Positions 30,443 to 62,774 are shown, counted from the stretch's first letter. The stretch: 64,000 nt of DNA from Eledone cirrhosa (GCA_964016885.1 OZ024744.1:40920001-40984000); one strand, 5' to 3'. The notes: a model not told the origin generated them from the letters alone. Made by a program: numbers and translations.

Positions 30443-30530
<88 letters not shown>

Positions 30531-30549
30531 ATAATAATAATAATAATAA
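30441..30549. repeat. (TAC)n followed by (TAA)n microsatellite; left border of the retroelement array
   Basis: Directly visible. Confidence 0.95.
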
Positions 30550-32747
30550 GTTTCAACTGTGATACTCAAATCAGTTTGTTGGTGTGCCTGTTCACTAATC
30601 TCCTTTTGTACTGTCTCAATCCACACTGCCTGGTCATTATGTTTAACATCCTGCTCCCATATTCCTTTCCAGAATGCCTTAGTTTGTTCCGCCTCAGGGA
30701 TCAAGTCGTTTCCTCTTTCTTTCCCTTCAAGCTGTCAATACAACATCTTCTGGTAGTTGTCAAACATGCAGTTATGTCTATACTGACTGACTCTGCTCTC
30801 GTATTACCCTATTTGTTGCACTCTTTGCTACAATGCGTTGCTTCAGTTCCTCTATGGTACAAAGGACCAGTTACTTATTGATAAGATGGTAATGAGGAAT
30901 TGCAAGAGGAGACACACAGGTCTTGCCATGGGATGGATAGACTACAAAAAGGCATTTGACATGGTGCCTCATTCTTGGATCACCAAAAGCCTAGAGATCT
31001 TCAAGGTGGCAGAAAACATCAGACAGTTGTTGAGCAAAAGTATGAAGTCCTGGAAAACAGAGTTAACATCAGCTGGACAATCCTTGGGAGGCGTGAAGAT
31101 CAAGAGAGGTATCTTCCAGGGAGATAGTCTGTCCCCTCTGTTGTTTGTCCTTGCCCTGATGCCCCTGACCATTATACTGCGAAAAGTGAGAGCAGGATAC
31201 AAGTTGGGAAAGGGAGAGCTTACCATCAATCACCTCCTCTTCATGGACGATCTTAAGCTCTTTGGGAAGAGTGAGAAGGAGTTGGATGTGCTTGTTGACA
31301 CTGTCCGTATTTTCAGCAATGATATATGTATGCAATTTGGTATTAGTAAGTGTGGAGTCCTAATGATGAAGAGGGGTAAATTGAGCAGAAGCAACGGAAT
31401 CCAGGTACCAACAGGTGAGATGATAAAGAAAACTGACACTGAAGAAGGATACAAATATTTAGGGGTTCTGGAGGCAGATGACATCAAGAACAAAAAAATG
31501 AAGGAATTGATAAGATCTGAGTACATTCGGAGAATAAGGAGCGTATTAAAATCACATCTGAAAAGTAGGAATGCCATAAATGCAGTAAATTCCCGAGCTG
31601 TGTCTATTATTAGGTACGGTGCGGGAATTCTGTGATGGAATGTTGCTGAACAAAAAGAAATGGATAGGAAGACTAGGAAGCTATTGACTATCTACAACAT
31701 GTTCCACAAGAGGAGTGATGTCGATAGACTATACTTAAGGAGATCTGAGGGTGGAAGAGGTCTTATCAGCATAGAGGACTGTGTTCAGATGGAGAAAATC
31801 AACCTACACAAATACGTGACTGATAGTAAGGAGCCAATGCTCAGAACTGTATTAAGGAGATGACAATAGACCAGGGGATATCCAAGGAGGAAATAACAAC
31901 AAGGAGAAAGAGCAGCCTTCAAGAAAAATCCCTTCATAGTACCTTCTTTGAGAAAACTGAATTTAGAGATCCACAGACATGGAACTGGTTGAAAAGAGGA
32001 GACCTTAAAAAGGCTACAGAAGGAATGTTAATGGCTGCGCAGGAGCAGGCCCTCAAAACGAAGAGGTTGAAACACCATATTTACAAGGAGGAGGCTAGCC
32101 CACTGTGCAGGATCTGTGGAGAGAGAGAGAGGAGACTGTGGCTCACATTGTATCCGAGTGTAAACACCTAGTCCAGACTAGGATGGAGACATGATGTGAT
32201 GGGCAGGGTGATCCACTGGCACCTATGCAAAGTAAACAATTTACCACATTCTGAGAAGTGGTATGAGCATAAGACAGAGACGGTGATAGAAAACGATCAG
32301 GTGAAGGTGTTATGGGATTTTAGGATACAGACGGACAAGAAACTAGAACACAATAGACCTGACCTGGTGGTTTTGGACAAAGAAAAAGGATCGTGCCTGC
32401 TTGTGGATGTGGCCTGCCCATTCGACACGAGAGTGCAAGAGAAGGAGAGGGAGAAAATTAACCGATACCAGGATTGAAGTGGGAGGTAAAAAGGATTTGG
32501 AACTGCCATGAAGTCAGGGTGATCCCGATTGTCATAGGCACACTAGGGACTATCTCAAAAAGTTTCCATGGATGGTTAAAGTAAATTGGCCCCTTCATGC
32601 TTTTTAGAACGCTTCAAAAGGCATGCTTGCTGAGAACAGCAAGAACCCTCCGATACGTCCTGAATATCTGAGGCTGCAGGTAGTGGCTTAATATTCATTT
32701 CAACAAGTTTCCAGTTAACTAACATCAATGACTGAGACTCAAAGAAC
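30550..32747 (+). mobile_element. R4/Dong family A copy with 5' inversion (30550-~30854 inverted), disrupted
   Basis: From ~30855 it is a sense-strand match to the 23979-26093 ORF ([19 protein letters not shown]). 30550-~30740 matches 26149-26340 in antisense. Ends in (TAA)n 32748-32815. Confidence 0.92.
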
Positions 32748-32751
32748 AATA

Positions 32752-32816
<65 letters not shown>

Positions 32817-33058
32817 TTTTCTTTATTAACCACAAGGGTTCACATAAAGTAGACATTAAGGACAGTACAGGACAATACAGGACGGTACAAATGGGCATTT
32901 CTGCGTGTAAAAAAACAGAGGTTGAAATAAAATAACAAAGAAAAATTCCCCAATAGGGGGGAGACTTCCAAGGGACATTTGTGGAGAAAGCCCATTAAAA
33001 GACCACAGTGGCCCTGACCACCAGGGCAAGTGCCCTCTCCCAGTTCTCCACCTTTAAT

Positions 33059-36000
33059 TTACAGACACATACTCAGAGAAGGCCCATTCATTCGGGCCAT
33101 ACTTGCTTCTCTCACCCATCTTTCAACAAAATGCTGGGAAGAGAGCACTTCCCTCTCTACCCTGATTTTCCTTTTCAAATGAAATTTGAAAAAGTTAATC
33201 AGGGCATCACCGAAGAGGTAAGTGCTCGTCTTCAGCCCTTTCAAACGTGTCCACCATACTATCTCTTTCGCCATGGCCACCAGACAGATAAAAACTGCCT
33301 GCCCTTCCAGGCTAAAGGAAGGGGGTGGGGCAATCCTCACGATGGACTCAGCTGATAGCTGGATCCGTCCTACACGTGACAGCAGGTGTTCGACATAAAC
33401 CCACAAGTCAGCAATGCTCGGACACTGGACGAGTGCGTGCAGGACGGTTTCGTCGCCCTGTGCGCATCTCGGACATGCCCGGCTGACGGCACCTCCATGC
33501 CTGTAGAGTTTATCCCGAACTGGCAAAGCTCCTCGGTAGCACTGCCAGGCCAGGGATTTCTGGAAGTTGTCCATAGGCCCCGGCCCGAAAGTCCTTCCGA
33601 AGAGATTGGCTAGTTGATTTTCGTCGACGCCTAGAGTTTCTCCAAGTACGTCGTCGCTCTTCCCCTCCACTAATCCCCTATAGAACGCCAAGGTGGAGTT
33701 TCCACCGATCACATTGCCCGATTGGTCGAGGGCTGTGAGCGCCTGAAGACATTCCAGTCTCCAAGCGCTCCCTCTCGGTCTTCGCTTGACCCAGGACTGC
33801 AGCTCCGTCAAGGAGACGAGCTGGGGAAAAACGTGTCTTGCAAACGGCGACCACACCTGATCACCGTCGAGGAAGAGGTGGAGATGTCGTAGCCTGAGCG
33901 CGTGTCTGCGCATCATCAGCCACGGCATGCCCAGCCCTCCACGTAGCGGGTGTTGACAGCAGATGGACCGCCTGACCATCGGAGCGCGTCCCTTCCACAA
34001 GAAGCGAAAGAGCAAACGCTCCAGCGCAGTCAGGCGGGGCTTAGGACAAGGTACGACGGTCAGGCGGTAGTAGATGACGGATGCGATGTACGCATTCGCC
34101 ACCTCCGCTAGACCTTTTAGGGATAGCTTCCTCTCGGCCCATTTCTGGGTGAGAGAAGCCACCCTGCTCGTCACCTCGTCCCAGTTTTTGTCCGTCTGGA
34201 GGTCTGGACCGAACCAGGCCCCTAGCAATTTAACCGGTCCGTCCGTCCAGCGCCCGACGACGCTGTTGGACGGCATGGACCTGCCTCTCCAGGTGCCGAG
34301 CTGCAGGCCCACTGACTTTTCCTGGTTGATCATTGCTCCTGTCACCGCTTCGTATTCTCTTAGTGTAGTGCCGATCGCCTCGATGTGTTTGGCGTTCGAC
34401 ACCACTACGGTGACATCGTCGGCATATGCTGACACGGATCTTCCGCATCCTAGTTCGCGCGGGATCCCCCTCAACGTCTCCAGTTTGTGCAGTAATGGCT
34501 CGAGAGTCAATACGTACAAGAAGGACGAGAGGGGACATCCTTGGCGGACCGAGCGCATGATGTTGAACGGTTCCGAAAGGTGACCGTTCACTCTCACTAC
34601 AGAGCAGATGTCGCTGTGCATGGCAGCGATCCAGCCTCTGAAGACGGGCCCAAAGCCAGCCGCCCTCAGGACTGCCGTTAGGTAACGATGGTCGACCCTA
34701 TCGAAGGCTTTCGACTGATCTAAATTGATCAAAGACCCACCCGTGCCAGGTTCCCTAGCTACCCTCTCTACGATGTATCGCATGAGGTGGAGGTTGTCGT
34801 GGATGGATCTGTCGGGAATGGCGCATGTCTGTGCCTCTCCCACCAGACCACCAACGACAAGCGCCAACCTCTTTGCTAGCACCTTGGCCAAAATCTTGAA
34901 CTCTGTGTTTAGCAGAGTTATGGGCCTAAAATTATCTATGTTATCCCCCTTGTTCGGATCCTTTCTCAGCAGCGCCACCGCTCCTCGGCTCACAGAGCTG
35001 GGAATTCTCCCGTTCTGTTGCCAGTTGCAGTAGACGTCCGCCAAGAGGCCTCCGAACAAGTTTGGCATTTGTACGTAAAGTTCATAGGGCAGACCATCCA
35101 AACCAGGCGATTTGCCCCTTGTGCAACTAGTCATTGCATCCCGTACTTCAGCGGTTGTTATCGGCTTTTCGCAACACTCCGCCTCAGTGGCCGAAAGCCG
35201 CGGCAGTCCGTCGAGGTAGACACTAAAGTCCATCCCTCGATCCGGCCCGCCACTGCCCCCGAACAGTTGAGCGAAGTGTCGCTGAAAAGCTTCACACATT
35301 TGCCCGGGATCGAGTAGCATGCGCCCGTCGTGGTCCACCAAAGACCGGATCGTGGCTTTGTTGCCACGACGCGCCTCCGCCACTCGGGCCCATTCAACGG
35401 CTTTCGTCCCCTCGTGTCTGAGAGCACGCACCCTAGCTCTGACAACGCAGCCTTCGTGCTTTGCATTGAAGAATTGGTCAAGGGCCAATTTCGCCGCAAG
35501 TACGTCGGTCGCGATGCCTTTGCTAAGCGCCTCATCTAATTTTCTAACTAATTCTCCCTCTGCTCTATTTTTCTCTATTGCTAAAGTCTTACTAAACCTA
35601 ATGGACTCTATTCTAATTGCTCTTTTCAGAGCAAACCACCACTTGTTGTTGACGATGGCCCCCGTCAACGCCCGCTTAACTAGTTCGCTAATCCGGTCTC
35701 TGTAGGCCTTGCGCGCTGGTAAGGACGCGTTTAGCTTCCAGTAGCCGGGTCCTCGTCTATGAAGCCTATCTAATTCAAGCACACAGATCACGAATTTGTG
35801 GTCCGTGTAGCTGACTATCTTGAATTGTGGACAGCCTATGCTAGACCTATCTATTTCCCTACAAAATACTCTATCTAGATATGATCTGGATGACCCTATG
35901 CGATTTGTCCAAGTCCACATTGGTACATTCGGGAAATCCATTCGGTACCTGTCAGACAGTTCAAAACGTCTGAGCAGGTTGGTGAGACTCTTGCACCCTC

Positions 36001-36478
36001 CTTCCCTATCCACTAATCCCACACAATCCCAGCGTGCATCTAAGATCCCGTTCCAGTTGCCCACTAACAATAAAGAGCGGGACGTTCCAAGAAAGGTCTC
36101 CAGACGCCGGAAGAAATCAGGCCGCCCTGCTCCTGTCGGGGCATAGACGGCCACTAACCTGAAAGCTTGCCCGTCTCCGCTGGTCACGTCCAGCACCACC
36201 AACTTACCTTCTGGGTCCAGGAAGATGGCCCGTATGGCAAGATCCAAACCTCTCCGAAAAAGCACAGCAACTCCTCCCCCCGATCCCGGACGGCTGGGAG
36301 ATGCGTACACATCGTAGCCGCCGAAGATCGGTGCGAAAGCCTGTGCTTCGGAGATTCTGGTCTCGCTGATGGTCACTACATCTATGTTTAGTGACCTGAG
36401 GTCGTTGAGCAGGTGGCCCTGCTTCCATGACGACCCCAAGCCACGCGCATTTATGCTGCCTATTCTGAGTGAGGTCAT
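33059..36478 (-). CDS. Tx1 ORF2: APE endonuclease + reverse transcriptase + Cys-rich C-terminus (1139 aa, uninterrupted)
   Basis: GSINARGL, ISETR, VYAP, G(N)WN, SYLDR, YTDH, PGYWKLN; SPGLDGLP, LDQSKAFDRV, QGCPLS, YADD; CPRC..DETVLHALVQC. Confidence 0.95.
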   Translation of the reverse strand: MTSLRIGSINARGLGSSWKQGHLLNDLRSLNIDVVTISETRISEAQAFAPIFGGYDVYASPSRPGSGGGVAVLFRRGLDLAIRAIFLDPEGKLVVLDVTSGDGQAFRLVAVYAPTGAGRPDFFRRLETFLGTSRSLLLVGNWNGILDARWDCVGLVDREGGCKSLTNLLRRFELSDRYRMDFPNVPMWTWTNRIGSSRSYLDRVFCREIDRSSIGCPQFKIVSYTDHKFVICVLELDRLHRRGPGYWKLNASLPARKAYRDRISELVKRALTGAIVNNKWWFALKRAIRIESIRFSKTLAIEKNRAEGELVRKLDEALSKGIATDVLAAKLALDQFFNAKHEGCVVRARVRALRHEGTKAVEWARVAEARRGNKATIRSLVDHDGRMLLDPGQMCEAFQRHFAQLFGGSGGPDRGMDFSVYLDGLPRLSATEAECCEKPITTAEVRDAMTSCTRGKSPGLDGLPYELYVQMPNLFGGLLADVYCNWQQNGRIPSSVSRGAVALLRKDPNKGDNIDNFRPITLLNTEFKILAKVLAKRLALVVGGLVGEAQTCAIPDRSIHDNLHLMRYIVERVAREPGTGGSLINLDQSKAFDRVDHRYLTAVLRAAGFGPVFRGWIAAMHSDICSVVRVNGHLSEPFNIMRSVRQGCPLSSFLYVLTLEPLLHKLETLRGIPRELGCGRSVSAYADDVTVVVSNAKHIEAIGTTLREYEAVTGAMINQEKSVGLQLGTWRGRSMPSNSVVGRWTDGPVKLLGAWFGPDLQTDKNWDEVTSRVASLTQKWAERKLSLKGLAEVANAYIASVIYYRLTVVPCPKPRLTALERLLFRFLWKGRAPMVRRSICCQHPLRGGLGMPWLMMRRHALRLRHLHLFLDGDQVWSPFARHVFPQLVSLTELQSWVKRRPRGSAWRLECLQALTALDQSGNVIGGNSTLAFYRGLVEGKSDDVLGETLGVDENQLANLFGRTFGPGPMDNFQKSLAWQCYRGALPVRDKLYRHGGAVSRACPRCAQGDETVLHALVQCPSIADLWVYVEHLLSRVGRIQLSAESIVRIAPPPSFSLEGQAVFICLVAMAKEIVWWTRLKGLKTSTYLFGDALINFFKFHLKRKIRVEREVLSSQHFVERWVREASMARMNGPSLSMCL

Positions 36479-36512
36479 GTTGAAAAGGAGTGGAAAAGAT
36501 GGGAAAGACCAC

Positions 36513-38484
36513 TTACCTTACTTCTCGTAGGGGAAGGACGGTTTTTCCATCCTTTTCACTGCTTGTGGCCTCCTCAGGAAGGATGTCCTTATAAATCCTC
36601 CTGGAGAGTGCTTGTCGGAAGTCTCCGATGTCTTTGGGGAATTTTTGTTTTAGTGTCATGTACGTTTTCTGTGTGATGCGAGTGATTTGTATGTGTGGAG
36701 GTGGTGTGAATTTTGGGGTTGTTGTGTAGTCTTTTTCTGTGATGCTGGTGTTGTGTTGGATGTAGTGTAATAATTGCTTGTTGTTCCAATTTAATGCTGT
36801 GTAGTGTGTATCGTTTTGGTTGTTTTGTTTTGTTTGCGTTTGTTGTGGGTTTGTTTCTGTTTCGCATTTTGGTGACTTTTGTGGTGTAGGTGATGGTGGT
36901 GCTGGAGTTAATGATGGTGATGGTGTTGGTGTTTGGGTTGATGGGGTTGGTGATGCTGGTGTGGATGGTGGCATATCTGTCCTAACTTTTTTGTTTCTTA
37001 GTTTATTTGTTTCCCTCTGTATTTTGTTTTTGGAGGGGGAAGGAAGAGAATTTTTTCTTTTTTGGTTTCTTTTTTTTTTTCCGGATATCGTTTCCCACTC
37101 CTCGTCGTCACAATCTGTCTCCAGTTGTGATAGGCCGGGGAGTAGAAAATCCTCCACAGCCGTTAGTTTTGGTTGTGGTGTGGTGGATGGTGTAGGCGCT
37201 GGTGCTAGTTCTGAAGCGTTGGGTGGTGGTGGTGTTGGTTTTGCTGGTGGTGGTAGTGGTGTTGGTTTTGTTACTGTTGCCGGGGTTGTTGCTGTTATAG
37301 TTGCTTCTGTTGTTGCTGCTACAGTTGTTGCTGCCATCTCTGCTACTGGTGGTGTTGATGGTTGTGTCACTGGGGTGGGTAGGAGAGGTGGCCTCAACCT
37401 TTTAGCCTGAGGGCAGAAAGCCCTTAGGTGGGTTCCTTCACCACAAACGACACACCTAGGTCTTCTTCCCTCGACAATTACCGTGAGGTGGCTGCCGTCA
37501 GTGAGGTCTATTACCTCTGGGATCTCCTCAATGCTTTTTTGGTCCGCTTGGATCAGGAGCTCCATCCCAGATCCGGACCAGTTTTCCTGCTTTTCTTTTG
37601 CTATTGCTATTATTTTCGTGTTGGCTTCGATGTCGGCGAGGACAGCCGCTATTAGCCAGGGAATTTCGATGGCCGGTGGAACGTGGGTCACCCTGATCTT
37701 TACGAGTCTCCGGCCACAATAGCTTGGGACGAGTGTGAAGTCGTCACTTTTTAATGGGGCCATGGAGTGTTCTCTAGCCTCCTCTGGTGTTTCAAAGAAA
37801 CCATCCACGGTTCCATACTTTTGCCCACGTCTGATGTGGGTTTTTCTTGCCCACACATGTCCCAAAGCTTTTTGGATTTGGGACTCGGATGCCCGTTCCA
37901 CTCGGCGCGATTTTACATTTATTGTTCTATACGACACGGTGCATAGGCGCCGATGCTCCATTTTATTAGGTGTGTGGGGGGGGGGAGGCTGATCCTGTAC
38001 CCATCTTTCTTTACCATTTGTTTGGCATTTTCTAAATCCTCCTGAGTTACCGGGAATGCTTCAAACTGTTTTGCTACTATGGCGAAACTGAGGGTCGGTT
38101 TTATAATGTCATTGTTGTTGTTGTTGCTATCGTTATTTGTGTTAATATTAATTTTAGTTTCAGTTGTGATGGTGGTGACGTCAGTCGTCTTTGGTGGCGA
38201 AGAGTCCATTTTGCTTGATTTCATTTCGACATCACGAGTTAATTTATTTTTTTCTTCTTTTGTTTCTGTTGTCGCGGTGGTGGTGGTGGTGGAGGCTTTA
38301 ACACCTGCAGTCATTGGTAATGGCGAGAAATGAATGTCTGCCTGAGACAAAGTTAAAATATTGCTAATGCTTATATTTTTTTTGTGTTGGCAAACGTAGT
38401 AACATTTACAATGGTGGTGTCGGTGTGAGGTGTTAATTTGTGAGGAAGGCTTTCAGCTGCTTGTTGCAGAGATGAATTAGCCAT
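36513..38484 (-). CDS. Tx1 ORF1 (RRM-like region, CCHC zinc knuckle, Pro/Thr-rich region); two frameshifts at homopolymers
   Basis: ATG at 38484 (MANSSLQQ). Frames shift at the T-run ~38376-38383 and the G-run ~37976-37986. GRRPRCVVCGEGTHLRAFCP knuckle in ORF 36513-37961. Confidence 0.85.
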
Positions 38485-38691
38485 TTCTTTCAAAGAAATT
38501 TTTTGATAATAATAAAAGTTTAAATTTTGGGAACAAGGCCCCAATCTTTTTGGGTGTCCTTTTCGGAAAACAATGTATGTGCGCTTATAAACAGTTAACA
38601 ATAAAATTTTCCATAAATGACAATTTTTAACAAACGGAAATAACAAACCTTTGCGGAGCTCACGATGATACGATTTACTACGTAGGTCGCC

Positions 38692-38748
<57 letters not shown>

Positions 38749-38750
<2 letters not shown>

Positions 38751-41700
38751 TTTCTTTATTAACCACAAGGGTTTACATAAAGTAGACATTAAGGACAGTG
38801 CAGGACAATGCAGGACGGTACAAATGGGCATTTCTGCGTGTAAAAAAAAAACAAAAACAGAGGATGTAACAAAAATAACAATGAAAATAACAATGAAAAA
38901 TTCCCCAATAGGGGGGAGACTTCGGAGGGACATTTGTGGAGAAAGCCCAGTAAAAAGCCACAATGACCCTGACCACCAAGGCAAGTACCCTCACCCAGTT
39001 TTCTACCTTTAATTTACAGATATATACTCAGAGTAGGCCCATTCACTCGGGCCATTCTTGCTTCTCTCACCCATCTTTCAACAAAATGCTGGGAAGAGAG
39101 CACTTCCCTCTCTACTCTGATTTTCGTTTTCAAATGAAATTTGAGAAAGTCAATCAGAGCATCACCGAAGAGGTAAGTGCTCGTCTTCAGCCCTTTCAAA
39201 TGTGTCCACCATACTATCTCTTTCGCCATGGCCACCAGACAGATAAAAACTGCCTGCCCGTCCCGGCTAAAGGAGGAGGGCTGGGCAATCCTCACGATGG
39301 ACTCAGCTGATAGCCGGATCCGTCCTAAACGCGACAGCAGGTGTTCGACATAAACCCACAAGTCAGCAATGCTCGGACACTGGACGAGTGCGTGCAGGAC
39401 GGTTTCGTCGCCCTGCGCGTATCTTGGACATGCCCGGCTGACGGCACCTCCATGCCTGTAGAGTTTATCCCGAACTGGCAAGGCTCCTCGGTAGCACTGC
39501 CAGGCCAGAGATTTCTGGAAGTGGTCCATAGGCCCTGGCCCGAAAGTTCTTCCGAAGAGATTGGCTAGTTGATTTTCGTCGACGCCTAGAGTTTCCCCAA
39601 GTACGTCGTCGCTCTTCCCCTCCACTAATCATCTATAGAACGCCGAGGTGGAGTTTCCACCGATCACATTGCCCGATTGGTCGAGGGCTGTGAGCGCCTG
39701 AAGACATTCCAGTCTCCAGGCGCTCCCTCTCGGTCTTCGCTTGACCCAGGACTGCAGCTCCGTCAAGGAAACGAGCTGGGGAAATATGTGTCTACCAAAC
39801 GGCGACCACACCTGATCACCGTCGAGGAAGAGGTGGAGATGTCGTAGCCTGAGCGCGTGCCTGCGCACCATCAGCCACGGCATGCCCAGCCCTCCACGTA
39901 GCGGGTGTTGACAGCAGATGGACCGCCTGACCATCGGAGCGCGTCCCTTCCACAAAAAGCGAAAGAGCAAACGCTCCAGCGCAGTCAGGCGAGGCTTAGG
40001 ACAAGGTACGACGGTCAGGCGGTAGCAGATGACGGACGCGATGTACGCGTTAGCCACCTCCGCTCGACCTTTCAGGGATAGCTTCCTCTCCGCCCGTTTC
40101 TGGGTGAGAGAAGCCACCCTGCTCGTCACCTCGTCCCAGTTTTTGTCCGTCTGGAGGTCCGGACCGAACCAGACCCCTAGCAATTTAACCGGTCCGTCCG
40201 TCCAGCGTCCGACGACGCTGTTGGACAGCATGGACCTGCCTCTCCAGGTGCCGAGCTGCAGGCCCACTGACTTTTTCTGGTTGATCATTGCTCCTGTCAC
40301 CGCTTCGTATTCTCTTAGTGTAGTGCCGATCGCCTCGATGTGTTTGGCGTTCGACACCACTACGGTGACATCGTCGGCATATGCTGACACGGATCTTCCG
40401 CATCCTAATTCGCGCAGGATGCCCCTCAACGTCTCCAGTTTGTGCAGTAATGGCTCGAGAGTCAATACGTACAAGAAGGACGAGAGGGGACATCCTTGGC
40501 GGACCGAGCGCATGATGTTGAACGGTTCCGACAGATGACCGTTCACTCTCACCACAGAGCAGATGTCGCTGTGCATGGCAGCGATCCAGCCTCTGAAGAC
40601 GGGCCCAAAGCCAGCCGCCCTCAGGACTGCCGCTAGGTAACGATGGTCGACCCTATCGAAAGCTTTCGACTGATCTAAATTGATCAAGGACCCACCCGTG
40701 CCAGGTTCCCTAGCTACCCTCTCTACGATGTATCGCATGAGGTGGAGGTTGCCGTGGATGGATCTGTCGGGAATGGCGCATGTCTGCGCCTCTCCCACCA
40801 GACCACCAACGACAAGCGCCAACCTCTTTGTTAGCACCTTGGCCAAAATCTTGAACTCTGTGTTTAACAGAGTTATGGGCCGGAAATTATCTATGTTATC
40901 CCCCTTGTTCGGATCCTTTCTCAGCAGTGCCACCGCTCCTCGGCTCACAGAGCTGGGAATTCTGCCGTTCTGTTGCCAGTTGCAGTAGACGTCCGCCAAG
41001 AGGCCTCCGAAGAAGTCTGGCAGCTGCACGTAAAGTTCATAGGGCAGACCATCCAAACCAGGCGATTTACCCCTTGTGCAGCCAGTCATTGCCTCCCTTA
41101 CTTCAGCGGCTGTAATCGGCTTTTCGCAACACTCCGCCTCAGTGGTCGAGAGCCGCGGCAGTCCGTCGAGGTAGATACTAAAGTCCATCCCTCGACCCGG
41201 CCCACCGCTGCCCCCGAACAGCTGAGCGAAGTGTCGCTGAAAAGCTTCACACATTTGCCCGGGATCGAGTAGCATGCGCCCGTCGTGGTCCACCAAAGAC
41301 CGGATCGTGGCTTTGTTGCCACGACGCGCATCCGCCACTCGGGCCCATTAAACGGCTTTCGTCCCCTCGTGTCTGAGAGCACGCACCCTTGCTCTGACAA
41401 CGCAGCCTTCGCGCTTTGCATTGAAGAATTGGTCAAGAGCCAATTTCGCCGCACGTCGGTCGCATGCCTTTGCTAAGCGCCTTGTCTAATTTTCTAACTA
41501 GTTCTCCCTCTGCTCTATTTTTCTCTATTGCTAAAGCCTTACTAAACCTAATCGATTCTATTCTAATCGCTCATTTCAGAGCAAACCACCACTTGTTGTT
41601 GACGATGGCTCCCGTCAACGCCCGCTTAACTAGTTCGCTAATCCGGTCTCTGTAGGCCTTGCGCGCTGGTAAGGACGCGTTTAGCTTCCAGTAGCCGAGT

Positions 41701-49768: not shown

Positions 49769-49832
<64 letters not shown>

Positions 49833-49833
<1 letters not shown>

Positions 49834-51926
49834 GTTGACAAAAGGTACCACAGTTCTGATAATGAAAGACCGAATCAAGGGTAATGATGTTACCAACTAT
49901 AGACCTATCACATGTCTGTCCGTAATGTGGAAACTGTTGACAAGCATTATGTCTGAGGAAATCTACCTTCACCTCCACACAAACAACTTGTTACCGGACG
50001 AACAGAAAGGATGCCGAAAGAAGTCACGTGGTACAAAGGACCAGTTACTTATTGATAAGATGGTAATGAGGAATTGCAAGAGGAGACACACTGGTCTTGC
50101 CATGGGATGGATAGACTACAAAAAGGCATTTGACATGGTGCCTCATTCTTGGATCACCAAAAGCCTGGAGATCTTCAACGTGGCATATATCATCAGACAG
50201 TTGTAGGGCAAAAGTATGAAGTCCTGGGAAACAGAGTTAACATCAACTGGAGAATCCTTGGGAAGCGTGAAGATCAAGAGGGGTATCTTCCAGGGAGATA
50301 GTCTGTCCCCTCTGTTGTTTGTCCTTGCCCTGATGCCCCTGACCAGTGTACTGCGAAAAGTGAGAGCAGGATACAGGTTAGGAAAGGGAGGGCTTACCAT
50401 CAATCACCTCCTCTTCATGGACGATCTTAAGCTCTTCGGGAAGAGTGAGAAGGAGTTGGATGTGCTTGTTGACACTGTCCGTATTTTCAGCAATGATATA
50501 TGTATGCAATTTGGTATTAGTAAGTGTGGAGTCATTGTGATAAAGAGGGGTAAGTTGAGCAGAAGTAACGGAATCCAGGTGCCAACAGGTGAGATGATAA
50601 AGGAAATTGACTCTGAAGAAGGATACAAGTATTTGGGTGTTCTGGAGGCTGATGACATCAAGAACGAAAAAATGAAGGAATTGATAAGAACTGAATACAT
50701 TCGGAGAGTATGGAGCGTATTAAAGTCACATCTGAACAGAAGGAATGTCATAAGCGCAGTAAATTCCCGAGCTGTGTCTATTATTAGGTACAGTGCGGGA
50801 ATTCTGAGATGGAATGTTGCTGAACAAAAAGAAATGGAAGACTAGGAAGCTATTGACTATCTACAACATGTTCCACAAAAGGAGTGATGTCGATAGACTC
50901 TACTTAAGGAGATCTGAAGGTGGAAGAGGTCTTATCAGCATAGAGGACTGTGTTCAGATGGAGAAAAACAACCTACACAAATACGTGACTGATAGTAAGG
51001 AGCAAATGCTCAGAACTGTACCGAAGGAGGGGACAATAGGCCAGGGGATGTCCAAGGAAAAAATAACATCAAGGAGAAAGAGCAGCCTTCAAGAAAAATA
51101 CCTTCATAGTACCTTCTTTGAGAAAACTGAATTTAGAGATCCACAGACATGGAACTGATTGAAAAGAGGAGACCTTAAAAAGGCTACAGAAGGAATGTTA
51201 ATGGCTGCGCAGGAGCAGGCCCTCAAAACGAAGTGGTTGAAACACCATATTTACAATGAGGAGGCTAGCCCACTGTGCAGGATCTGTGGAGAGAGAGAGA
51301 GGAGACTGTGGCTCACATTGTATCCGAGTGTAAACACCTAGCCCTGACTCACTATAAGGGCTGGAGACATGATGTGATGGGCAGGGTGATCCACTGGCAC
51401 CTATGCAAAGTAAACAATTTACCACATTCTGAGAAGTGGTATGAGCATAAGCCAGAATCGGTGATAGAAAACGATCAGGTGAAGGTGCTGTGGGATTTTA
51501 GGATACAGACGGACAAGAAACTGGAACACAATAGACCTGACCTGGTGGTTGTGGACAAAGAAAAAAGATCGTGCCTGATTGTGGATGTGGCCTGCCCTTT
51601 CGACACGAGAGTGCAAGAGAAGGAGAGGGAGAAAATTAACCGATACCAGGACTTAAAGTGGGAGCTAAAAAGGATTTGGAACTGCTATGAAGTCAAAGTG
51701 ATCCCGATTGTCATAGGCGCACTAGGCACTATCTCAAAAAGTTTCCAGGGATGGTTAAAGAAAATTGGCCCCTTCACGCTTTTTGGAACGCTTCAAAAGG
51801 CATGCTTGCTGGGAACAGCAAGAACCCTCCGATACGTCCTGAATATCTGAGGCTGCAGGTAGTGGCTTGATATTCATTTCAACAAACTTTCCAGTTAACT
51901 AACATCAATGACTGAGACTCAAAGAG
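49833..51926 (+). mobile_element. R4/Dong family A copy, 5'-truncated, disrupted
   Basis: ORF pieces 49835-51850 are nearly identical to 23979-26093. (TAA)n on both sides. Confidence 0.93.
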
Positions 51927-51954
51927 TAATAATAATAATAATAATAATAATAAT

Positions 51955-54900
51955 GATTTCATTTATTAGCCAAAAGGGCCGACATGTGGGGGACAATACA
52001 AAGACAGGGACAGTGGGGGTTTACAATAAGGTCGAGTAAAAGTGCACAATGGCAAGACTAATTTAACAATGAAAATATAAAATATAAAATAAACTAAGCA
52101 AAATATAATAAAATAAATTCCCCGATAGGGGGTGGACGACCCTGGGTGATTCGGGTACCCCACCAATCCTGAACCACCCTGCGCTTCTAGGGCACCCAGG
52201 AGAGCACCCCTCTCCTCAAGTTAGCTAGCCTATAGGCGCATGGTCAGAGTAGGCCCATTCATACGAGCCATTCTCGCCACATTCACCCACCTTTTAGCAA
52301 ATGTACTGGGGGGGCAGCACTTCTCTCTCCACCCTCACCCTCCTTTCCAGGTGAAACTTGAAGAAGTTGATGAGGGATTGGCCGAAGAGAAAAGTGTCTG
52401 TCTTTAGTCCTTTCAACCTGGTCCACCATATAATCTCTTTCGCAACTGCCACCAGACAGAGGAAAATGTCCTGCTCTTCCTGACCTAAGGAAGGTGGCGG
52501 CTCGATCTTCACTATGGACTCGGCCGATAACTGGATTCGTTCCACACGCGACAGTAGCTGTTCGACATAACTCCACAAGTCAGTAATGCACGGACATTGG
52601 ACAAGTGCGTGCAGAACGGTTTCGTCGTTCTGTGCGCATCTTGGGCAGGTCCGTCTGACAGCACTTCCGTGCTTGTAGAGTTTATCCCGAAACGGCAGTG
52701 CCCCCCGGTAGCACTGCCAAGCGAGGGATTTCTGGAAATTGTCCATCGTCCCCGGCTCAAAAGTCCTCCGGTACAGACTGGTCAGTTCGACTTCGTCGAG
52801 GCCCAAAGCTTCTCCGAGTGCGTCATCGCACTTGCCCACCACTAATCCTCTATAGAATTCGAGAGTGGAAGTTCCACTGATTGCATTGCCCGCTTGGTAG
52901 AGGGCAGTGAGTGCCTGGCAACATTCCAGGTGCCAGTCACCAGTTTCGGTCTCTTCTTGACCCAGGACTGCAGCTCAGTCAAAGAAATGAGCTGCGGAAA
53001 GGCCCGTCTGATAAACGGCGACCACACCTGTTCACCATTGAGGCAGAATATCTGCAGATGTCGCAGCCTCAACGCATGTCTGCGCATCATTAGCCACGGC
53101 ATGCCCAGCCCTCCGCGTAGAGGGTGCTGGCAGCAGATGGACCGCCTCACCAACGGAACTTGTCCCCTCCACAAGAATTTGAAGAGGAGCCGTTCCAACT
53201 TGACGAGGCGCGGACGGGGGCAAGGCACGACGGTTAGGCGGTAATAGATGACGGACGCGATGTACGCATTCGCCACCTCCGCGCGACCTTTCAGTGATAG
53301 CTTCCTCCCAGCCCATTTTTGGGTGAGACTGGCTACTCTGCTCGTTACCTCGTCCCAATTCTTTTCCACCTGGAGGTCTGGTCCGAACCAAACCCCGAGC
53401 AACTTTACTGGTCCATCCGTCCAGCGCCCCACAACGCTGTTGGACGACATGGGCTTGCCTCTCCAGGTTCTGAGCTGCAAGCCCACCGACTTTTCCGGGT
53501 AAAGTTTGGCTCCTATCAACCTCTCATATTCCTTCAATAAGGTGCCGACCACCTCGATTTCTGAGGTGTTCGACACCATCACGGTGATGTCGTCCGCATA
53601 AGCCGACACCGCCTTTCCACGTCCCGGTTCGAGCGGGATTCCCTGCAACAGCTCCAGCTTCCGCAGTAAAGGCTCGAGAGTCAATACGTACAGAAGGGAA
53701 GAGAGAGGGCACCCTTGACGGACCGATCGGGAGAGCCGAAATGGTTCCGAGAGGTGGCCATTAACCTTGACCACCGAGCGTGTGCCGCTGTGCATTGCAA
53801 CGATCCAGCTTCTAAAGACAGGGCCGAAGCCAGCTGCTTTGAGGACAAACTCCAGATACCGATGGTCGACCCTATCGAATGCTTTCGATTGATCTAAATT
53901 GATCAGTGCCCCACCGAAGCCAGGTTTACACCCTACCCTCTCTATGATGTATCGCATGAGGTGGAGATTGTCGTGTATGGACCTGGCTGGGATTGCGCAA
54001 GTTTGCGCCTCCCCAACCAAATCCTCGACGACAAGCGCCAATCTCTTTGCTAACACCTTGGCCAAAATCTTAAACTCTGTGTTGAGCAGAGTTATGGGCC
54101 TGAAGTTGTCTAATGTATCCCTCTTGTTCTCGTCTTTCCTTATCAGCGTCACCAGTCCCCTGCTCACAGAACTGGGAATACTCCCATTCTGCTGCCAGTT
54201 ACAGTAGAGTGCTTCGCGGAGTTCGGAGAACAAGTCTGGCATATTTACGTAAAGCTCGTAGGGCAGGCCATCCAAGCCGAGTGACTTGCGCCTCATGCAG
54301 CCGACAAGGGCGTCCTGAATTTCGGCTGAAGTAATCGGCCTTTCGCAGCGCTCAGCGTCGACCGTCGAGATGCGCGGCAAGCCGTCAAGGTAGGGACTGA
54401 AATCCGCTACTCTCTCTGACTCGCCACTCTCCCCGAACAACCGAGCAAAGTGCTGGCGAAAGGCCTCACACACCCGCTTGGAATCGCTTATCTCGTGTCC
54501 GTCTCGGTCCGCCAAAGACCGAATTGTGGTTTTATTACCACGCTGCGCCTCTGCCACGCGGGCCCATCGAACAGCTTTAGTTCCCTCGTTTCTCAGCGCA
54601 CGCGCCTTAGCTCTGACAATGCAACCTTCGTGTTTGGCATTGAAGACATGGTCTAATGCCATTCTCGCCGCTAGCACGTCAGTTGCGATGCCACTACAAA
54701 TAGCCTCGTCTAACTTATCTACCAGCTCCCCCTCCTTTCTATTTTTCTCTAAGACTAGTTCTTTGCTGAACTCTATCGAAGTTACTCTAATCTCTCTTTT
54801 GAGAGCCCCCCACCATCTGTTGTTGACGATCCCCCCTGTCAACTTTTGCTTAACTAACTTATTGACTCGGTCCCTGTAAGCCTTACGTGCCGGAAATGAC

Positions 54901-57857
54901 ATGTTCAGCTTCCAGTAACCCGGTCCTAACCTACGCGTTTTATTTAGGTCGACCGTACAGATCACAAATTTGTGATCTGAATAGGCGACCGTTTTAAAAA
55001 GTGGACAGCCCACACTATTTCTATCTATTTTCCTAATGAAGATTCTGTCTATATACGATCTAGATGACCCCATTCGGTTGGTCCATGTCCATACTGGCAC
55101 ATTGGGGAAATCTAGTCGATACCTGTCAGACAGTTGGAACTGGCTGAGTAGGTGCTTGAGGCTTTTGCACCCCCCGCTCCTATCGGCTACTCCCACACAA
55201 TCCCAGCGTGCGTCTAAGATGCCATTCCAGTCCCCCGCTAACAGTAAAGGGCGAGACGTACCCAGAAAGGTCTCCAGGCGCCTAAAGAAGTCAGGTCGTC
55301 CGGCCCCTGTAGGGGCGTATGCGGCCAGCAGTCTAAAGGCACCACCTTCGCTACTGCTCACATCCAACACCACCAACTTACCGTCCGGGTCCCGGAAGAT
55401 CGACCTTACATCGAGATCCAGTCCTTTCCTAAACAGCACTGCCACCCCACCCCCCATTCCCGGCCTGCTAACAGATGCGAAGATCTGATAGTCGTCGAAA
55501 ATGGGGGCTAGTGCACGCGTGTCGGAAATTCTGGTCTCGCTTACGGCAATCACATCCATTTCCAGCGACCGGAGGTCGTTGAGCAGGCGACCCTGCTTCC
55601 AGGGTGACCCCAGGCCGCGAACATTTAAACTTCCTACTCTTAATATGGCCATATTGGTAAGCTAAGAGAGAGAGAGGGAAGGTTTACTTACCTCCCGGGT
55701 CTTGTGAAGGTCGGGTGGTTCGACCTCCATGGTTGGTGGGGTTTCTTTTGGGAACCCCTTTAAAAGTCTTGATGTGGGTTTCACATTCGGGTTTCCCACG
55801 TCTTGAGGAAAGCTCTCTCGAATTTCTTTGAAGGAATTGAGTGACATTCGGACCAGGAGCAAATCTTCTGGCACGCAAAATGTGCTCATTTCAAAAATCT
55901 CCCCCTCTGTTTGAATGTCCTCGCTTCGCGCTAAGAGGGCCATTAGTTTATCGTTGGCCCTTCTGACAAGCACGAAGTTTTTAACATTTTGTTGGTGTGG
56001 TTTTATTTGTTTTCGTTTTGGTGAAGGTGGTGGCGATGGTTTTGGTGGTGTTGTTTCGGGTATGTCTATGTTTGTTGTAGGTGTGGTGTCTGCAATTTCA
56101 GGTATTTGTGTGTTTATTTGTACTTGTGTTTGTTTAGGTTGTTTGCGTTTCGGGGATTGTGGAGGTGGTGTCGATGTTGCTGATGGTGCTGATGTTATTG
56201 GGGAAGTGGCTGCGTTAGTGGTGTCTGTATTTTTTGTTGTATGTGTTTTTGTGTTTTGTAGGGGCTTTTTTTTTTGTGAGTTTTCTCTGTTTTTTTGCAC
56301 TTTTGGGTTTTCCTTCATCTTCGCTGCTGGAAGACAAAGGGTCTGTGTCTGTGAGTGTCTCTGTGTCTGTGTGTGCGTTTATTTTTTTTTTGTCTATGTA
56401 TATAGTTGGGGGGGGAGTGGGAGAGCTTTCCTCGTTTGCTCCTTGGATTGGTTTTGGTGTTGGTGGTGATCCGGCTGCTTTTGATGTTGGTGTCCGTGTT
56501 TTTGTTGATGTTGTTTTTGGTGGTGGTGGTGGTGCAGCTTTCCGTGCTGACACTGGCGTTGGCAACAAAGGAGGTTTGCGACCCCCTGCATTTTTGCGCT
56601 GAGGGCAGAAGGCTTGAAGATGCGTGGCTTCCCCGCAAACGAAGCAGCGTGGCCTTCTTCCGTCAATCATTAGTTGGATCGTTGTCCCGTCCTGCAGGCG
56701 GCCAAATCTGGGATGTTATTTATATCCTCCGGTTTCATTTGGAGAAGAATCTCCAAATACATTCCGGACCAGTCTTCTCTCTCTGTCCTTTTGATGTCCA
56801 GGAGCGTCGTGTCTGTCCCCTCCTCGATTACGCATCCCAGCAGCCACCATATGTTCATTCCTGGTGGGATGCTGGGAATGCGTACCTTCACTGTCCTTTT
56901 ACCCATATAGGACGGATGCATGATAATGCGTTCCGTTCTGCAGGGGATCACCGAGTGCTTAATAGCGAGGGCCTCGGTTTTGAACAGTACCAAGATGGTA
57001 CCGAACTGTTTGCCTCTTGCTTTGTACTCTATGTTACTTCCGATGTACTCCAAAGCAGCCTCTACCTCTGCTTGGCTCGCAAGTTCCACTTTTCGTGTCT
57101 GCACCGAAATACATCGAAAGAGCACCGTCCTCCTTTGCATGGTCGCTATTGCCTCGTCCGGGATGGTCAGGTTTGCCCAGGACTTCTCCCGTTTAATTAG
57201 CCTCCACGCTTTGGCCAACTGTTCGTCTTTATCGCTAATATCAATATCGATATTCAATAAGCGCTTTGTTTTTGCTGCTGCTGCTGCAGCAAATGTGGTG
57301 TTTCTGATGCTCTTATTGTTGTTGTTGTCATTCTTGCTGTTGTAACCGCCATCCTTGTTTACATTGAAGCTGTCGGTGTTTTTGTCGTTATTGCTCTGAG
57401 TTGTTGTTGTTGTGGTGGTGGTGGTGGTCGCGGTGGTGGTGATGTCGTTTTCAGATGATACTGCTGCTATGCCAGAAGGTTGTGATGGTAGCTTTTTAGT
57501 TTTGCTTTCACATTCAGTAGAGTGGATGACAGGCATGACTGTAGCCGTCGTAGTCATGGTGAAATCTGCAGTGGCTGCCTTTAAACTTTTGACCTGAACG
57601 TTGTTTACCGTTTCAAGGTCGAAAATTTCCATAATTTTCTTTTGGTGGGGAAGCGATTTTTTTCGAAGATTTTAAAAATAAATCTGAATATTCGGGCTTA
57701 AAGCCCGAATTTTGAGAGGTATCCCTCTCTTTAAATCAAGATGCGTACCTTAAGTTTCGTTAATGATAAGAAAATACAAAAAAAAGACACTTTAAAACAG
57801 CTTAAAGGTACGAACCTTTTCCCTCGCAGACTTGTCTGTCTTCACACATGTGCGGCC
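51955..57857 (-). mobile_element. Full-length Tx1-type element, family B (ORF1 55662-57632, ORF2 52230-55652, both frameshifted)
   Basis: 936-aa ORF2 piece with GSLNVRGL, VSETR, GDWN, YSDH and YADD. ORF1 has GRRPRCFVCGEATHLQAFCP. Bounded by (TAA)n 51927-51954 and 57858-57925. Confidence 0.95.
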
Positions 57858-57886
57858 AATAATAATAAATAATAAATAATAATAAC

Positions 57887-57925
<39 letters not shown>

Positions 57926-57927
<2 letters not shown>

Positions 57928-58539
57928 TGATGATTTCTTTATTAACCACAAGGGTTTACATAAAGTAGACATTAAGGACAGTGCAGGACAATACAGGACG
58001 GTACAAATGGGCATTTCTGCGTGTAAAAAAACAAAACAAACAGAGGGTGTAACAAAAAATAACAATGAAAAATTCCCCAATAGGGGGGAGACTTCGGAGG
58101 GATATTTGTGGAGAAAGCCCAGTAAAAAGCCACAATGACCCTGACCACCAAGGCAAGTGCCCTCTCCCAGTTTTCCACCTTTAATTTACAGATATATACT
58201 CAGAGTAGGCCCATTCACTCGGGCCATTCTTGCTTCTCTCACCCATCTTTCAACAAAATGCTGGGAAGAGAGCACTTCCCTCTCTACTCTGATATTCCTT
58301 TTCAAATGAAATTTGAAAAAGTCAATCAGATCATCACCGAAGAGGTAAGTGCTCGTCTTCAGCCCTTTTAAACGTGTCCACCATACTATCTCTTTCGGCA
58401 TGGCCACCAGACAGATAAAAACTGCCTGCCCTTCCCGGCTAAAGGAAGAGGGCGGGGCAATCCTCACGATGGACTCAGATGATAGCCGGATCCGTCGTAA
58501 ACGCGACAGCAGGTGTTCGACATAAACCCACAAGTCAGC
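57926..58539 (-). mobile_element. Tx1 family A copy 3, heavily 5'-truncated
   Basis: Matches the 3' ~0.6 kb of 38749-39370. (TAA)n on both sides. Confidence 0.93.
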
Positions 58540-58553
58540 AATAATAATAATAA

Positions 58554-60937
58554 AAATCCCCAGGAAAAGACAAAATACAAATTTTTTGGATAAATGCCTT
58601 CACAGAGTCTCATGAGCTGTTAGCCCAACTTTACAATGAAATAGTTAAGGAGCCAGAAAAGATACCATCATGGCTAGTTAACGGCATTACATTCCTGCTT
58701 CCGAAGAATGATGAGACAAACAATCCCAAAAATTACAGACCGATAACTTGCTTGACCACAATGTATAAAATTTTAACATCAGTCCTAACTGAATACACAT
58801 ATGACCACCTGATAACAAATGACCTATTTCCCATTGAGCAGAAAGGGTGTAAACGAGGCTCATATGGCTGTAAGGATCAGCTTCTGGTTAACAAAATGAT
58901 ACTGGAAGATTGTCATAATAGACACAAAAATCTATCGATTACTTGGATAGATTGTAAAAAAGCATTCGATAGTTTGCCACACAGTTGGATTGAAAAATGT
59001 TTAGAGATTTTCAAAATATCCCCCGTTGTCAGGAGGTTTTTGTCATTCAGTATGAAGACATGGAAAACGACACTCCTTTTGAATAGTGAAACAAAATCAC
59101 TGAAAGCTGGAGAAGTTAATATTAATTGTGGAATTTTTCAGGGTGACTCTTTATCACCGCTTTTATTCTGCATCGCACTTATACCATTAAGTAAAATGCT
59201 CAATGAAACAAAACATGGATATAAAGTCTATGACAAAACCATTAATCACCTGTTCTACATGGATGATCTGAAACTATTTGCAAAAAATGATGAACAATTG
59301 CAAGGGCTATTATCCACTGTGGAGCAGTTCAGTGATGACATTAAAATGGAGTTTGGACTGGATAAATGCGCCAAAGCAACGTTCACCAGAGGAAAGCTCC
59401 TGAAGAGTTCAGACATTAATCCTGATCGGGGGAACGTGATAAGAGAGCTTGATCAAGAAAAAAACTTACAAATATCTAGGTGTTTGTGAAGGAGACGGAA
59501 TCAAGCACTCGACAATGAGGGAAAGGATAAGGAAGGAATGTTACCGCAGAGTCAGAGCAATCTTAAGAACGGAATTGAATGCAAGGAATAGGATCGATGC
59601 CATAAACACGCTTGCCATACCAGTAGTAACCTACAGTTACAATGTCATTAACTGGTCAAGCACAGAGATCCGTAGGCTCGATACAAAAATTCGAAAATTC
59701 TTAACCATGCACAGAATGCATCACCCTAAGGCAGACATAGATAGAATATATCTCCCTAGGAAAGAAGGAGGACGTGGGTTAATCCAGTTAGACATTGCGT
59801 TGAAAACTGCAACAATTGGATTATCCACATATCTAAGGGAATCACATGATTGGATGATCAAACTCGTTTTGAAACACGAAAGCACCAAAAGATCATATTA
59901 CATTACAAAAGATGCACAAAGATACAGTAATGGACTACAAATTTCAGAAGTCCCATTTACTGCTGAAATGGAAAACACAGAAAAAGCAAAGCAGGTAAAA
60001 GTAACTGCAAAGAAAGAACTGCTACAGAAACTGGCTAAGAAATGGCAAGAAAAGTCTGGAAAATACCCAGAAAGAGCTAACAATCCTGATGTTGACAACA
60101 TTTTAACCCATCAGTGGTTGGCATCCTCTGGACTGAAATCGGAGACTGAAGGACTGATTATATCAGCACAAGATCAGTGTCTGCCAACAAAAAATTACCA
60201 AGCCAACATAATAAAAAACGGATGCAACCCATTATGCCGTGTGTGTAAAAAACAACCAGAGACCATTGACCATATAATTTCAATGTGCAGTCCTATAGCT
60301 CCAACCGAATACCTAAACAGGCATGACAGAGCTGCACAATACATACATTGGATAATGTGTAAGCATTTTGACCTGCCCCATCAAAAGAATTGGTGGGAGC
60401 ATCAACCACCTCCCATACTTGAAAAAGATCAGATCTCAATCTTGTGGAACTTTAGCATCCAAACAGACCGAAAAATAGATGCAAATAGACCTGATATAAT
60501 ATTGAAGGACTTTCAAAGGCGGGTATGCCTGCTAATTGATATGTCTGTTCCAATAGACAAGAATGTATCTATAAAAACATTTGAAAAATTGAGCAAGTAT
60601 AAGGACCTGGAGATAGAAATTGGAAAAATGTGGAAATTGAGAACTAAAACAATACCAGTGGTTGTGGGCGCTCTGGAAATGATACCTAAGTGGTCTAACG
60701 ACTACTTATCGCAAATCCCAGGAAACCCGCGTATAGGAGAAATACAAAAGATAGTACTAATGGGAACTGCCCATAAACTAAGGAAGATTCTGTCAATATA
60801 AGTACATCACAAGTCTAAACACTAAAGATGCATGTGAATATGTATGTTCTTTCTTGAACATGGCGGACCTTGTCTCTTGAGGTCACTGGTTGTGACTTGG
60901 TGATAACTCGTATGAACATAACGCAAGATAAATGCAA
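58554..60937 (+). mobile_element. R4/Dong family B copy, 5'-truncated
   Basis: ORFs 58752-59489 and 59449-60801 are nearly identical to 47400-49624. (TAA)n on both sides. Confidence 0.93.
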
Positions 60938-60951
60938 ATAATAATAATAAT

Positions 60952-62556
60952 GCTTTCTTTATTAACCACAAGGGTTTACACAAAGTAGATATTAAGGACA
61001 GTAAAGGACAATACAGGACTGTACAGGACAATACAGGACGGTACAAATGGGCATTTCTGCATGTAAAAACAAAACAAAAAACAGAGGATGTAGCAAAAAA
61101 GAACAAGGAAAAATTCCCCAATAGGGGGGAAACTTCTGAGGGCCATCGTGGACAAAGGCCATTAAGAAAAAGCCACGGTGACCCTGACCACCAGAGCAAG
61201 TGCCCACTCCCAATTTTCCACCTTCAATTTACAGGCACATACTCAGATACAATTTACAGGCACATGCTCGGGTCATTGTTGCTTCTCTCACCCATCTTTC
61301 AACAATATGCTGGGAAGAGAGCATTCCCCTCCATGCCTTGATTTTCCTTTTCAAATGAAATTTGAAAAAGTTAATCAGGGCATCACCGAAGAGGTAAGTG
61401 CTCGTCTTCAGCCCTTTCAGATGCGTCCACCATACTATCTCTTTCGCCATAGCCACCAGACAGATAAAAACTGCCTTCCCTTCCCGGCTAAAGGTAGAGG
61501 GCGGGGCAATCCACACCATGGACTCAGATGATAGCCGGATCCGATCTACACGCGACAGCTGGTGTTCGACATAAACCCACAAGTCAGCAAAGCTCGGACA
61601 CTGGACAAGTGCGTGCAGGACGGTTTCGTCGCCCTGCGCGCATCTCGGACATGCCCGGCTGACGGCACCTCCATGCCTGTAGAGTATATCCCGAACTGGC
61701 AAAGCTCCTAGGAAGCACTGCCAGGCCAGGGATTTCTGGAAGTTGTCCATAGGCCCCGGCCCGAAGGTTCTTCCGAAGAGATTGGCTACTTGACTTTCGT
61801 CGACGCCTAGAGTTTCTCCAAGTACGTCGTCGCTCTTCCCCTGCACCAATCCTCTATAGAACGCCAAGGTGGAGTTTCCACCGATCACATTGCCCGACTG
61901 GTCGAGGGCTGTGAGCGCCTGAAGACATTTCAGTCTCCAACCGCTCACTCTCAGTCTTCGCTTGACCCAGGACTGCAGCTCCGTCAAGGAGACGAGCTGG
62001 GGAAAGACGCGTCTAGCAAACGGTGACCACACCTGATCACCGTCAAGGAAGAGGTGGAGATGTCGTAGCCTGAGCGCGTGTCTGCGCATCATCAGCCACG
62101 GCATGCCCAGCACTGCGTAGCGGGTGTTGACAGGAGATGGACCGCCTGACAATCGGAGCGTATCTCTTCCACAAAAAGCGAAACAGCAAACGCTCCAGCG
62201 CAGTCAGGCGGGGCTTAGGACAAGGCACAACGGTCAGGCGGTAGTAGATGACGGGCGCGATGTACGCGTTCGCCACCTCCGCTCGACCTTTCTGGAGTAG
62301 CTTCCTTTCTGCCCATTTCTGGGTGAGAGAAGCCACCCTGCTCGTCACCTCGTCCCAGTTTCTATCCGTCTGGAGGTCCGGACCGAACCAGAACACTAGC
62401 AATTTAAACGTTCTGTCTGTCCAGCGCCCGATGACGCTGTTGGACGGCATGGACCTGCCTCTCCAGGTGCCGAGCTGCAGGCCCACCGACTTTTCCTGGT
62501 TGATCATTGCTCCTGTCACCGCGTCGTATTCCCTTAGTGTGGTGCCGATCACCTCG
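60952..62556 (-). mobile_element. Tx1 family A copy 4, 5'-truncated
   Basis: Matches 32816-34384. Bounded by (TAA)n 60938-60951 and 62557-62575. Confidence 0.93.
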
Positions 62557-62774
62557 ATAATAATAATAATAGTAATACTGGTGCTACTGCCTCAGCTGCT
62601 GCTAGTGTTAGTAATAACAACACCAACAACAGCAACAACAGTAGCAGCAAAAACTACAACAGCAGCTACAGCAGCAACACTAATAGGATGTATGAAGATA
62701 ATTATATCAATAATGGGATAATATTCACCCACTCAATATTTAAAGATTGGGAGATATATGAAGGTGTGGTTTTG

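Follow-up and report, generated by a model that had tools for sequence, protein, structure and literature searches.

The Dong retrotransposons of Bombyx mori, DongAg of Anopheles and DongBg of the snail Biomphalaria target TAA repeats (PMC3812793), and Dong insertions are described as having TAA upstream on the sense strand (PMC3774820). Tx1 retrotransposons also use microsatellites: Kibi targets TC, Koshi targets TTC, crocodilian Tx1 families target TTCC or TTTC, and Tx1-Mar is accompanied by a SINE, SINEU, that uses the same target; neither ATT nor TAA is a term in that paper's main text, although its supplements may name further targets (PMC4494074). SART and TRAS occupy the (TTAGG)n telomeric repeats of Bombyx in opposite orientations and cut opposite strands (PMC7265360). 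R2 transcripts include upstream 28S target sequence, and their 5' junctions are uniform as a result (PMC3774820). Dong-R4 and L1-Tx1 elements were recently active in Octopus vulgaris and have expanded in coleoids, and the accessible parts of the three papers reporting this hold no target analysis of them (PMC13282606, PMC8967140, PMC10294476).

Here, we analyzed a stretch of 64,000 nucleotides from Eledone cirrhosa (the window), which holds nine retrotransposons between 30549 and 62558, as delimited by aligning the window to itself, by Pfam and by comparison with a set of genomic copies (Table 1). The four on the plus strand have RT, CCHC and a PD..D restriction-like nuclease (RLE) and are Dong/R4-like; the five on the minus strand have APE, RT and zf-RVT and are Tx1-like LINEs. 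The former resemble R4-clade Dong in their TAA target, their sense-strand TAA and their RT with C-terminal CCHC and RLE, but unlike known Dong they occur here in thousands of copies and are interleaved with an APE lineage. The latter resemble the microsatellite Tx1 elements described in PMC4494074 in having two ORFs with an APE, in preferring particular targets, in inserting in tandem and in being accompanied by a SINE on the same target, whereas their targets are ATT and ATCT and not the TC, TTC, TTCC and TTTC of Kibi, Koshi and the crocodilian families. As with SART and TRAS, two families share one repeat duplex in opposite orientation; SART and TRAS are both APE elements and telomeric, while RLE and APE elements are combined here at interstitial microsatellites across chromosomes. 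TAA-targeting Dong and the use of one repeat in opposite orientations are known ingredients, and the cross-clade combination and the ATT/ATCT pair of Tx1 families with a SINE appear to be undescribed. We found neither ATT- or ATCT-targeting Tx1 nor Dong/Tx1 co-arrays in the literature searched, though Repbase and Dfam entries may note such targets.

A first-pass annotation of the window had described nine elements from two unrelated lineages, four on plus and five on minus, joined by ten (TAA)n runs and none nested in the body of another; our alignments confirm the elements, the position of each run and the absence of nesting. The layout of its map holds, but the first DongA copy has an inverted 5' piece, so that the first TAA run abuts antisense Dong. 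Between this piece and the forward part 345 bp are absent, a pattern that we take to be the one expected from twin priming. Identity between an array member and its nearest sampled copy ranges over 90.5-98.9% (T2 had only three copies to compare with) and is lowest for the rightmost member, a spread of sequence divergence that fits stepwise growth. The solitary DongA outside the array is preceded on its 5' side by a degenerate TTA run (26347-26383), whereas past the tail at its 3' end hardly any repeat follows. Said earlier to obey the same strand rule as the array, it does so in the frame of the repeat, lying on the minus strand with the TTA run at its 5' side.

Table 1. Features of the window (positions counted from its first nucleotide).
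Feature	Position	Strand	Remarks
T3, Tx1-like sister family	1..3166	+	about 71% aa; lacks its 3' end in the window
Solitary young DongA	23897..26358	-	99.8% to nearest sampled copy
SINE with Tx1-like 3' end	27150..27335	+	target duplication begins ATTATT
Left (TAA)7 run	30529..30549	+	continues (TAC)29 run at 30443-30529
Inverted 5' piece of first DongA copy	30549..30859	-	about 310 bp; twin-priming-like
DongA, 5'-truncated, forward part	30855..32752	+	RT, RLE, 3' UTR in this order
TAA run, Dong 3' / Tx1 3'	32748..32815	+	
T1a, Tx1-like, full length	32816..38691	-	ORF1 with CCHC knuckle; open 1139-aa ORF2 (APE, RT, zf-RVT)
TAA run, Tx1 5' / Tx1 3'	38692..38748	+	
T1b, Tx1-like, full length	38749..44796	-	
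TAA run, Tx1 5' / Dong 5'	44797..44858	+	
DongB, full length	44859..49768	+	ORF broken
TAA run, Dong 3' / Dong 5'	49769..49832	+	
DongA, 5'-truncated	49832..51932	+	
TAA run	51927..51954	+	
T2, Tx1-like, full length	51955..57857	-	
TAA run, interrupted	57858..57931	+	
T1, 5'-truncated	57932..58542	-	
Short TAA run, Tx1 5' / Dong 5'	58540..58553	+	
DongB, 5'-truncated	58554..60937	+	CCHC and RLE motifs
Short TAA run	60938..60953	+	
T1-like, 5'-truncated	60954..62558	-	most diverged array member; 90.5% to nearest sampled copy
Right TAA run	62557..62577	+	

The array members belong to five families (DongA, DongB, T1a, T1b and T2), which bears out the earlier claim of at least two families per kind. 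The names Dong and Tx1 are putative, given from domain architecture and target and not from a tree with named references; homologue searches with either protein returned no named element. DongA and DongB are 37-47% identical in amino acids and, by motif search, have a single ORF with RT, a C-terminal CCHC and the PD..D restriction-like nuclease; R2 proteins are the nearest solved structures. Elements of the R4/Dong clade, unlike R2, are not known to have N-terminal zinc fingers, and 0/59 full-length homologues showed a finger pattern within their N-terminal 300 aa, where a conserved W..CY..GYRKRM motif is found in its place. An HDV-like 5' ribozyme is a feature of Bombyx Dong that we did not find here: Rfam gave no ribozyme match in 23000-64000 (low-complexity matches only), and a custom HDV descriptor, not calibrated on a known ribozyme, gave nothing convincing at six 5' ends and 40 Dong 5' ends. 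Full-length DongA and DongB have related 5' ends (70-86%) with ORFs about 40% identical (window 44859-45460), and four proteins in other assemblies (P0133-P0136) are 67-70% identical to DongA.

In the Tx1-like elements, Pfam identified an L1-like ORF2 with APE, RT and a C-terminal zinc knuckle, and human L1 ORF2p was the best solved match (E 1e-50). Tx1 ORF1 has RNA-binding domains and a CCHC knuckle, unlike mammalian L1 ORF1. The ORF1 found here carries a CCHC motif in its sequence, had no match in the Pfam search and gave Atlas matches to CCHC and ZCCHC3-RBD clusters (0.88-0.93); a literature search returned no link between ZCCHC3 and Tx1. Copies show target specificity with duplication and no poly(A) tail. 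ORF2 of T1b is 96% identical to that of T1a in amino acids, and that of T2 75%. T1a and T1b have ORF2 and the 3' UTR in common and distinct 5' UTR/ORF1 modules (60% aa over 94 residues; window 38000-38691 versus 43554-44796), and further Tx1 5' modules at three sampled loci (L006, L027, L193) all begin with G after ATT. The T1a copy of the array is 98.9% identical to its nearest sampled copy and has the motif GNWN, which is GDWN in 44/44 tile copies. T1 has one close protein homologue (78%), the remainder being 40-44% identical.

To place these elements genome-wide, we searched the 3.0 Gb assembly and found at least 9,671 T1 3' ends and, counting every Tx1-like member that shares this 3' terminus, at least 26,992 ends (exact patterns), with at least 4,277 exact 3' matches for DongA and 4,707 for DongB. 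Copies were sampled as best matches (30 loci per element kind), by position in 60 of the 103 10-kb tiles around listed T1 ends of one contig (C1), and in 60 Dong-anchored tiles around part of the Dong ends listed on that contig. In the Dong-anchored tiles, (TAA)3 or more was present at 99/108 3' ends, 77/90 truncated 5' ends and 8/10 full 5' ends, and (TTA)3 at none of the Dong junctions. For Dong copies in the T1-anchored tiles, the corresponding counts were 34/37, 16/28 and 2/2, and among best-match loci 29/30 DongB 5' ends had upstream TAA, separated from the element by (AAG)n in at least six. Runs of (AAG)n/(CTT)n were present at some Dong 5' junctions (L092, L098, L104, L108, L112, L114) and truncated Tx1 5' junctions (L235, L239). 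Because truncated Dong copies keep TAA at the 5' side, the repeat is a target and not just a tail. We considered whether the elements themselves make the repeats, purely as 3' tails on whose AT-rich sequence neighbors pile up without any targeting; both lineages do end in a repeat, DongA has an AAT/AAC tail of its own, and in truncated Tx1 copies a long run is often confined to the 3' side. This is very improbable given that the TAA 5' of truncated Dong copies often has unique sequence beyond it, that SINE duplications place ATTATT in the target, and that tails would not fix orientation. For Dong, we rejected a tail-only origin on the strength of its truncated copies.

Tx1 junctions depend on whether the copy is complete. 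In the tiles, 77/90 Tx1 3' ends and 33/33 full-length 5' ends touched (TTA)3, and the 5' run was found in 30/30 top-match full-length T1 copies. Genome-wide, 2,148/2,370 full-length T1a 5' ends lie right after an exact (ATT)4 in a single register. By contrast, only 10/47 truncated Tx1 5' ends in the tiles touched the repeat, and four or more units upstream were present in 9/32 truncated copies (identity at least 90%) versus 30/30 full-length copies (p 5e-10). The repeat expected at 5' junctions by the first-pass annotation is therefore carried by Dong and full-length Tx1 but is mostly lacking in truncated Tx1. Most of the 23/32 young truncated copies without a long 5' run have no duplication at all, and some truncated copies have duplications that start with ATT and extend into unique sequence. 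The run ends in ATT in 30/30 full Tx1 copies and varies in Dong and in truncated Tx1, where microhomology blurs the ends being compared. A single AAT-tailed Tx1 end was seen among the first 100 listed. At five loci (L213, L259, L261, L263, L265), a truncated Dong and a truncated Tx1 are fused head to head with no run between them, which suggests that such fusions may be insertion-linked deletions.

The fixed ATT|G register would be explained if full-length Tx1 RNA began with a few AUU units, a leader able to pair with the target at the 5' junction, a postulated feature modeled on the target sequence of R2 RNA and one toward which we lean slightly. Full-length copies also have long 3' runs (28/30), so insertion into long runs would explain their 5' runs without a leader.

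A SINE that is abundant in the genome (with further stretches at window 6976-7054 and 7774-7846) gives a separate view of the Tx1 site. It carries what we take to be A/B-box-like motifs. Across 152 SINE copies, 30 of them best-match loci and the others from tiles, 62 had a non-repeat duplication, versus 4.4% in shuffled pairs; these duplications have a mode of 16 bp and start Y|ATTATT. The Tx1-type site is thus short, with two units sufficing. The earlier proposal that (TAA)n is the target stands for Dong, where truncated copies retain it, but has to be relaxed for Tx1, which needs only the short Y|ATTATT. Against shuffles, the 3' end of the SINE aligned to Tx1 families (p 0.0025-0.043) and showed no resemblance to Dong and RTE (p 0.47-0.82). 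SINE and Tx1 3' ends have a common 4-bp stem, whose pairs differ in a covarying manner, and a CUUGU loop; shuffled sequences folded about as stably as these 3' hairpins (z -1.1 to 0.2), so that only the covarying stem and the common loop carry weight. From this resemblance, the SINE is likely mobilized by the ATT-type Tx1 families, which would give an abundant SINE a likely partner LINE.

Orientation follows the repeat in the array and genome-wide: the sense strand reads TAA for Dong-like copies and ATT for Tx1-like copies. At other loci, 112/114 adjacent pairs had concordant orientation; the two discordant pairs comprise one direct pair and one across an inverted SINE pair. Inverted SINE halves placed back to back and flanked by repeats flip the local repeat strand (L221 12071-12276; L256 3815-3986). 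Consecutive T1 3' ends were less than 15 kb apart in 38/99 cases, 34 of them on the same strand, where 3.3 would be expected if uniform. Given this concordance and clustering, the array pattern is not due to chance, and the proposed common duplex target, opposite orientation and genome-wide stacking are upheld. One could suppose that insertion is untargeted and that copies in microsatellites were merely retained by selection, as repeat-rich sites carry a low cost; we regard this as very improbable, since retention cannot fix the strand or the register in which full-length T1a copies sit.

Stacking is common. In 30 position-ordered T1 copies, the neighbor across the 3' run was another LINE in 14 (10 Dong 3' ends and 4 Tx1 5' ends, after removal of one SINE remnant misassigned as Dong), and one further neighbor resembles a Tx1 5' end. 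The longest chain in the tiles had 7 members, and tile edges shorten chains. From a neighbor probability of 0.40-0.55 and an assumed 28,000-40,000 copies, a geometric estimate gives 11-151 arrays of nine or more, which together with the tile chains makes the window array a long example of a common structure. We therefore rejected the idea that this locus is unique, with chains of up to 7 in the tiles and tens of 9-mers expected. That the array arose through concatenation in the assembly or by tandem duplication is exceedingly improbable: one small tandem duplication with T1 fragments does exist elsewhere (L244), but the array has five families, 4-25% difference within a kind and distinct truncation points, comparable chains lie on other chromosomes, and raw reads confirm the 3' junction type. 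On these same grounds an assembly artefact was rejected. In the raw reads (one run of another sample), we counted 4,136 loose TAA ends at the T1a 3' end. The 5' half of T1a is present in sequencing runs under several organism labels; no RNA runs were among those listed for it.

We also asked whether junctions wear out as arrays grow. The junction runs of this array add up to about 425 bp. Across the sample, junction runs were no shorter in larger arrays (rho -0.08, p 0.44, 105 junctions), in agreement with the earlier claim that each insertion renews the repeat; the stable length is consistent with regeneration, although later slippage would look alike. TAA runs between LINEs exceed free runs (median 8 versus 5), and long runs may simply attract insertions.

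In our view, the array is a stack of differently aged copies, probably built by repeated target-primed insertions of two unrelated lineages that would nick opposite TAA/TTA strands. By target-primed reverse transcription geometry, the Dong restriction-like nuclease would nick the TTA strand beside a long upstream TAA run, and Dong insertion would leave no unique-sequence duplication. Judging by the junctions, the Tx1 APE would nick the TAA strand at 5'-AATAAT/R-3', with priming at the end of the RNA immediately after the AAUAAA signal, and Tx1 insertion would duplicate about 16 bp. Through duplication, tail and slippage together, a fresh junction would match its predecessor in length, and with junction length maintained, every insertion would add target for either lineage. 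In this way a short microsatellite could grow into a stack of retroelements 32 kb long, which would be one route to genome growth in this animal.

What encodes the Tx1 specificity is informed by the sister family T3, which has the same 3' terminus as the ATT-type Tx1 families and yet in other copies is followed by (ATCT)n. Tails read by eye among the first 100 listed ends were ATT in 63, ATCT in 31 and other in 6, and ATCT stood at the 5' junction of 8/19 sampled T3 copies, with four junctions not properly reached. T3 is also found in head-to-tail pairs (sampled loci L322-L340). It is conceivable, though we judge it less probable than not, that the Tx1 nuclease is loose, cutting AT/R in AT-rich DNA, and that an (AUU)n or (AUCU)n RNA 3' end picks the site by pairing with the nicked strand. 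This is compatible with stacking by two lineages that nick opposite strands and shifts only which part encodes specificity. The use of (ATCT)n by a family with the same terminus speaks for it, as do tails that both start AT and EN hairpins that are almost the same in T1 and T3 (WTNRSGTSRSYLDR versus WTNRIGSSRSYLDR, two positions differing). The EN domains overall are only about 60% identical (147/248), however, which leaves room for differences outside the hairpin; the latter is described as a known and not the sole determinant of specificity (PMC1950540), and EN swaps are reported to alter SART/TRAS specificity (PMC7265360). More speculatively, and on balance doubtfully, a Tx1 radiation may have retargeted between ATT and ATCT mainly via RNA ends (3' tail and 5' leader) and less via the nuclease, with the ATT branch, the SINE and the two Dong families supplying one another with new TAA target from opposite strands. 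If true, this would extend the SART/TRAS arrangement across clades and over the whole genome. The two sister families, one on ATT and one on ATCT, would form a natural pair for testing whether site-specific APE elements owe their target to the nuclease or to pairing of the RNA.

Finally, other repeats were found in the window outside the array. A 29-bp satellite of about 186 copies spans 10639-16236. An RTE-like LINE at 27700-30340, with fragments at 17631-18551, is broken and carries APE, RT and PHD-finger domains. Near-identical short local duplications involve 3483-4650 and 4708-5529 (99% across 611 bp and 97% across 187 bp).
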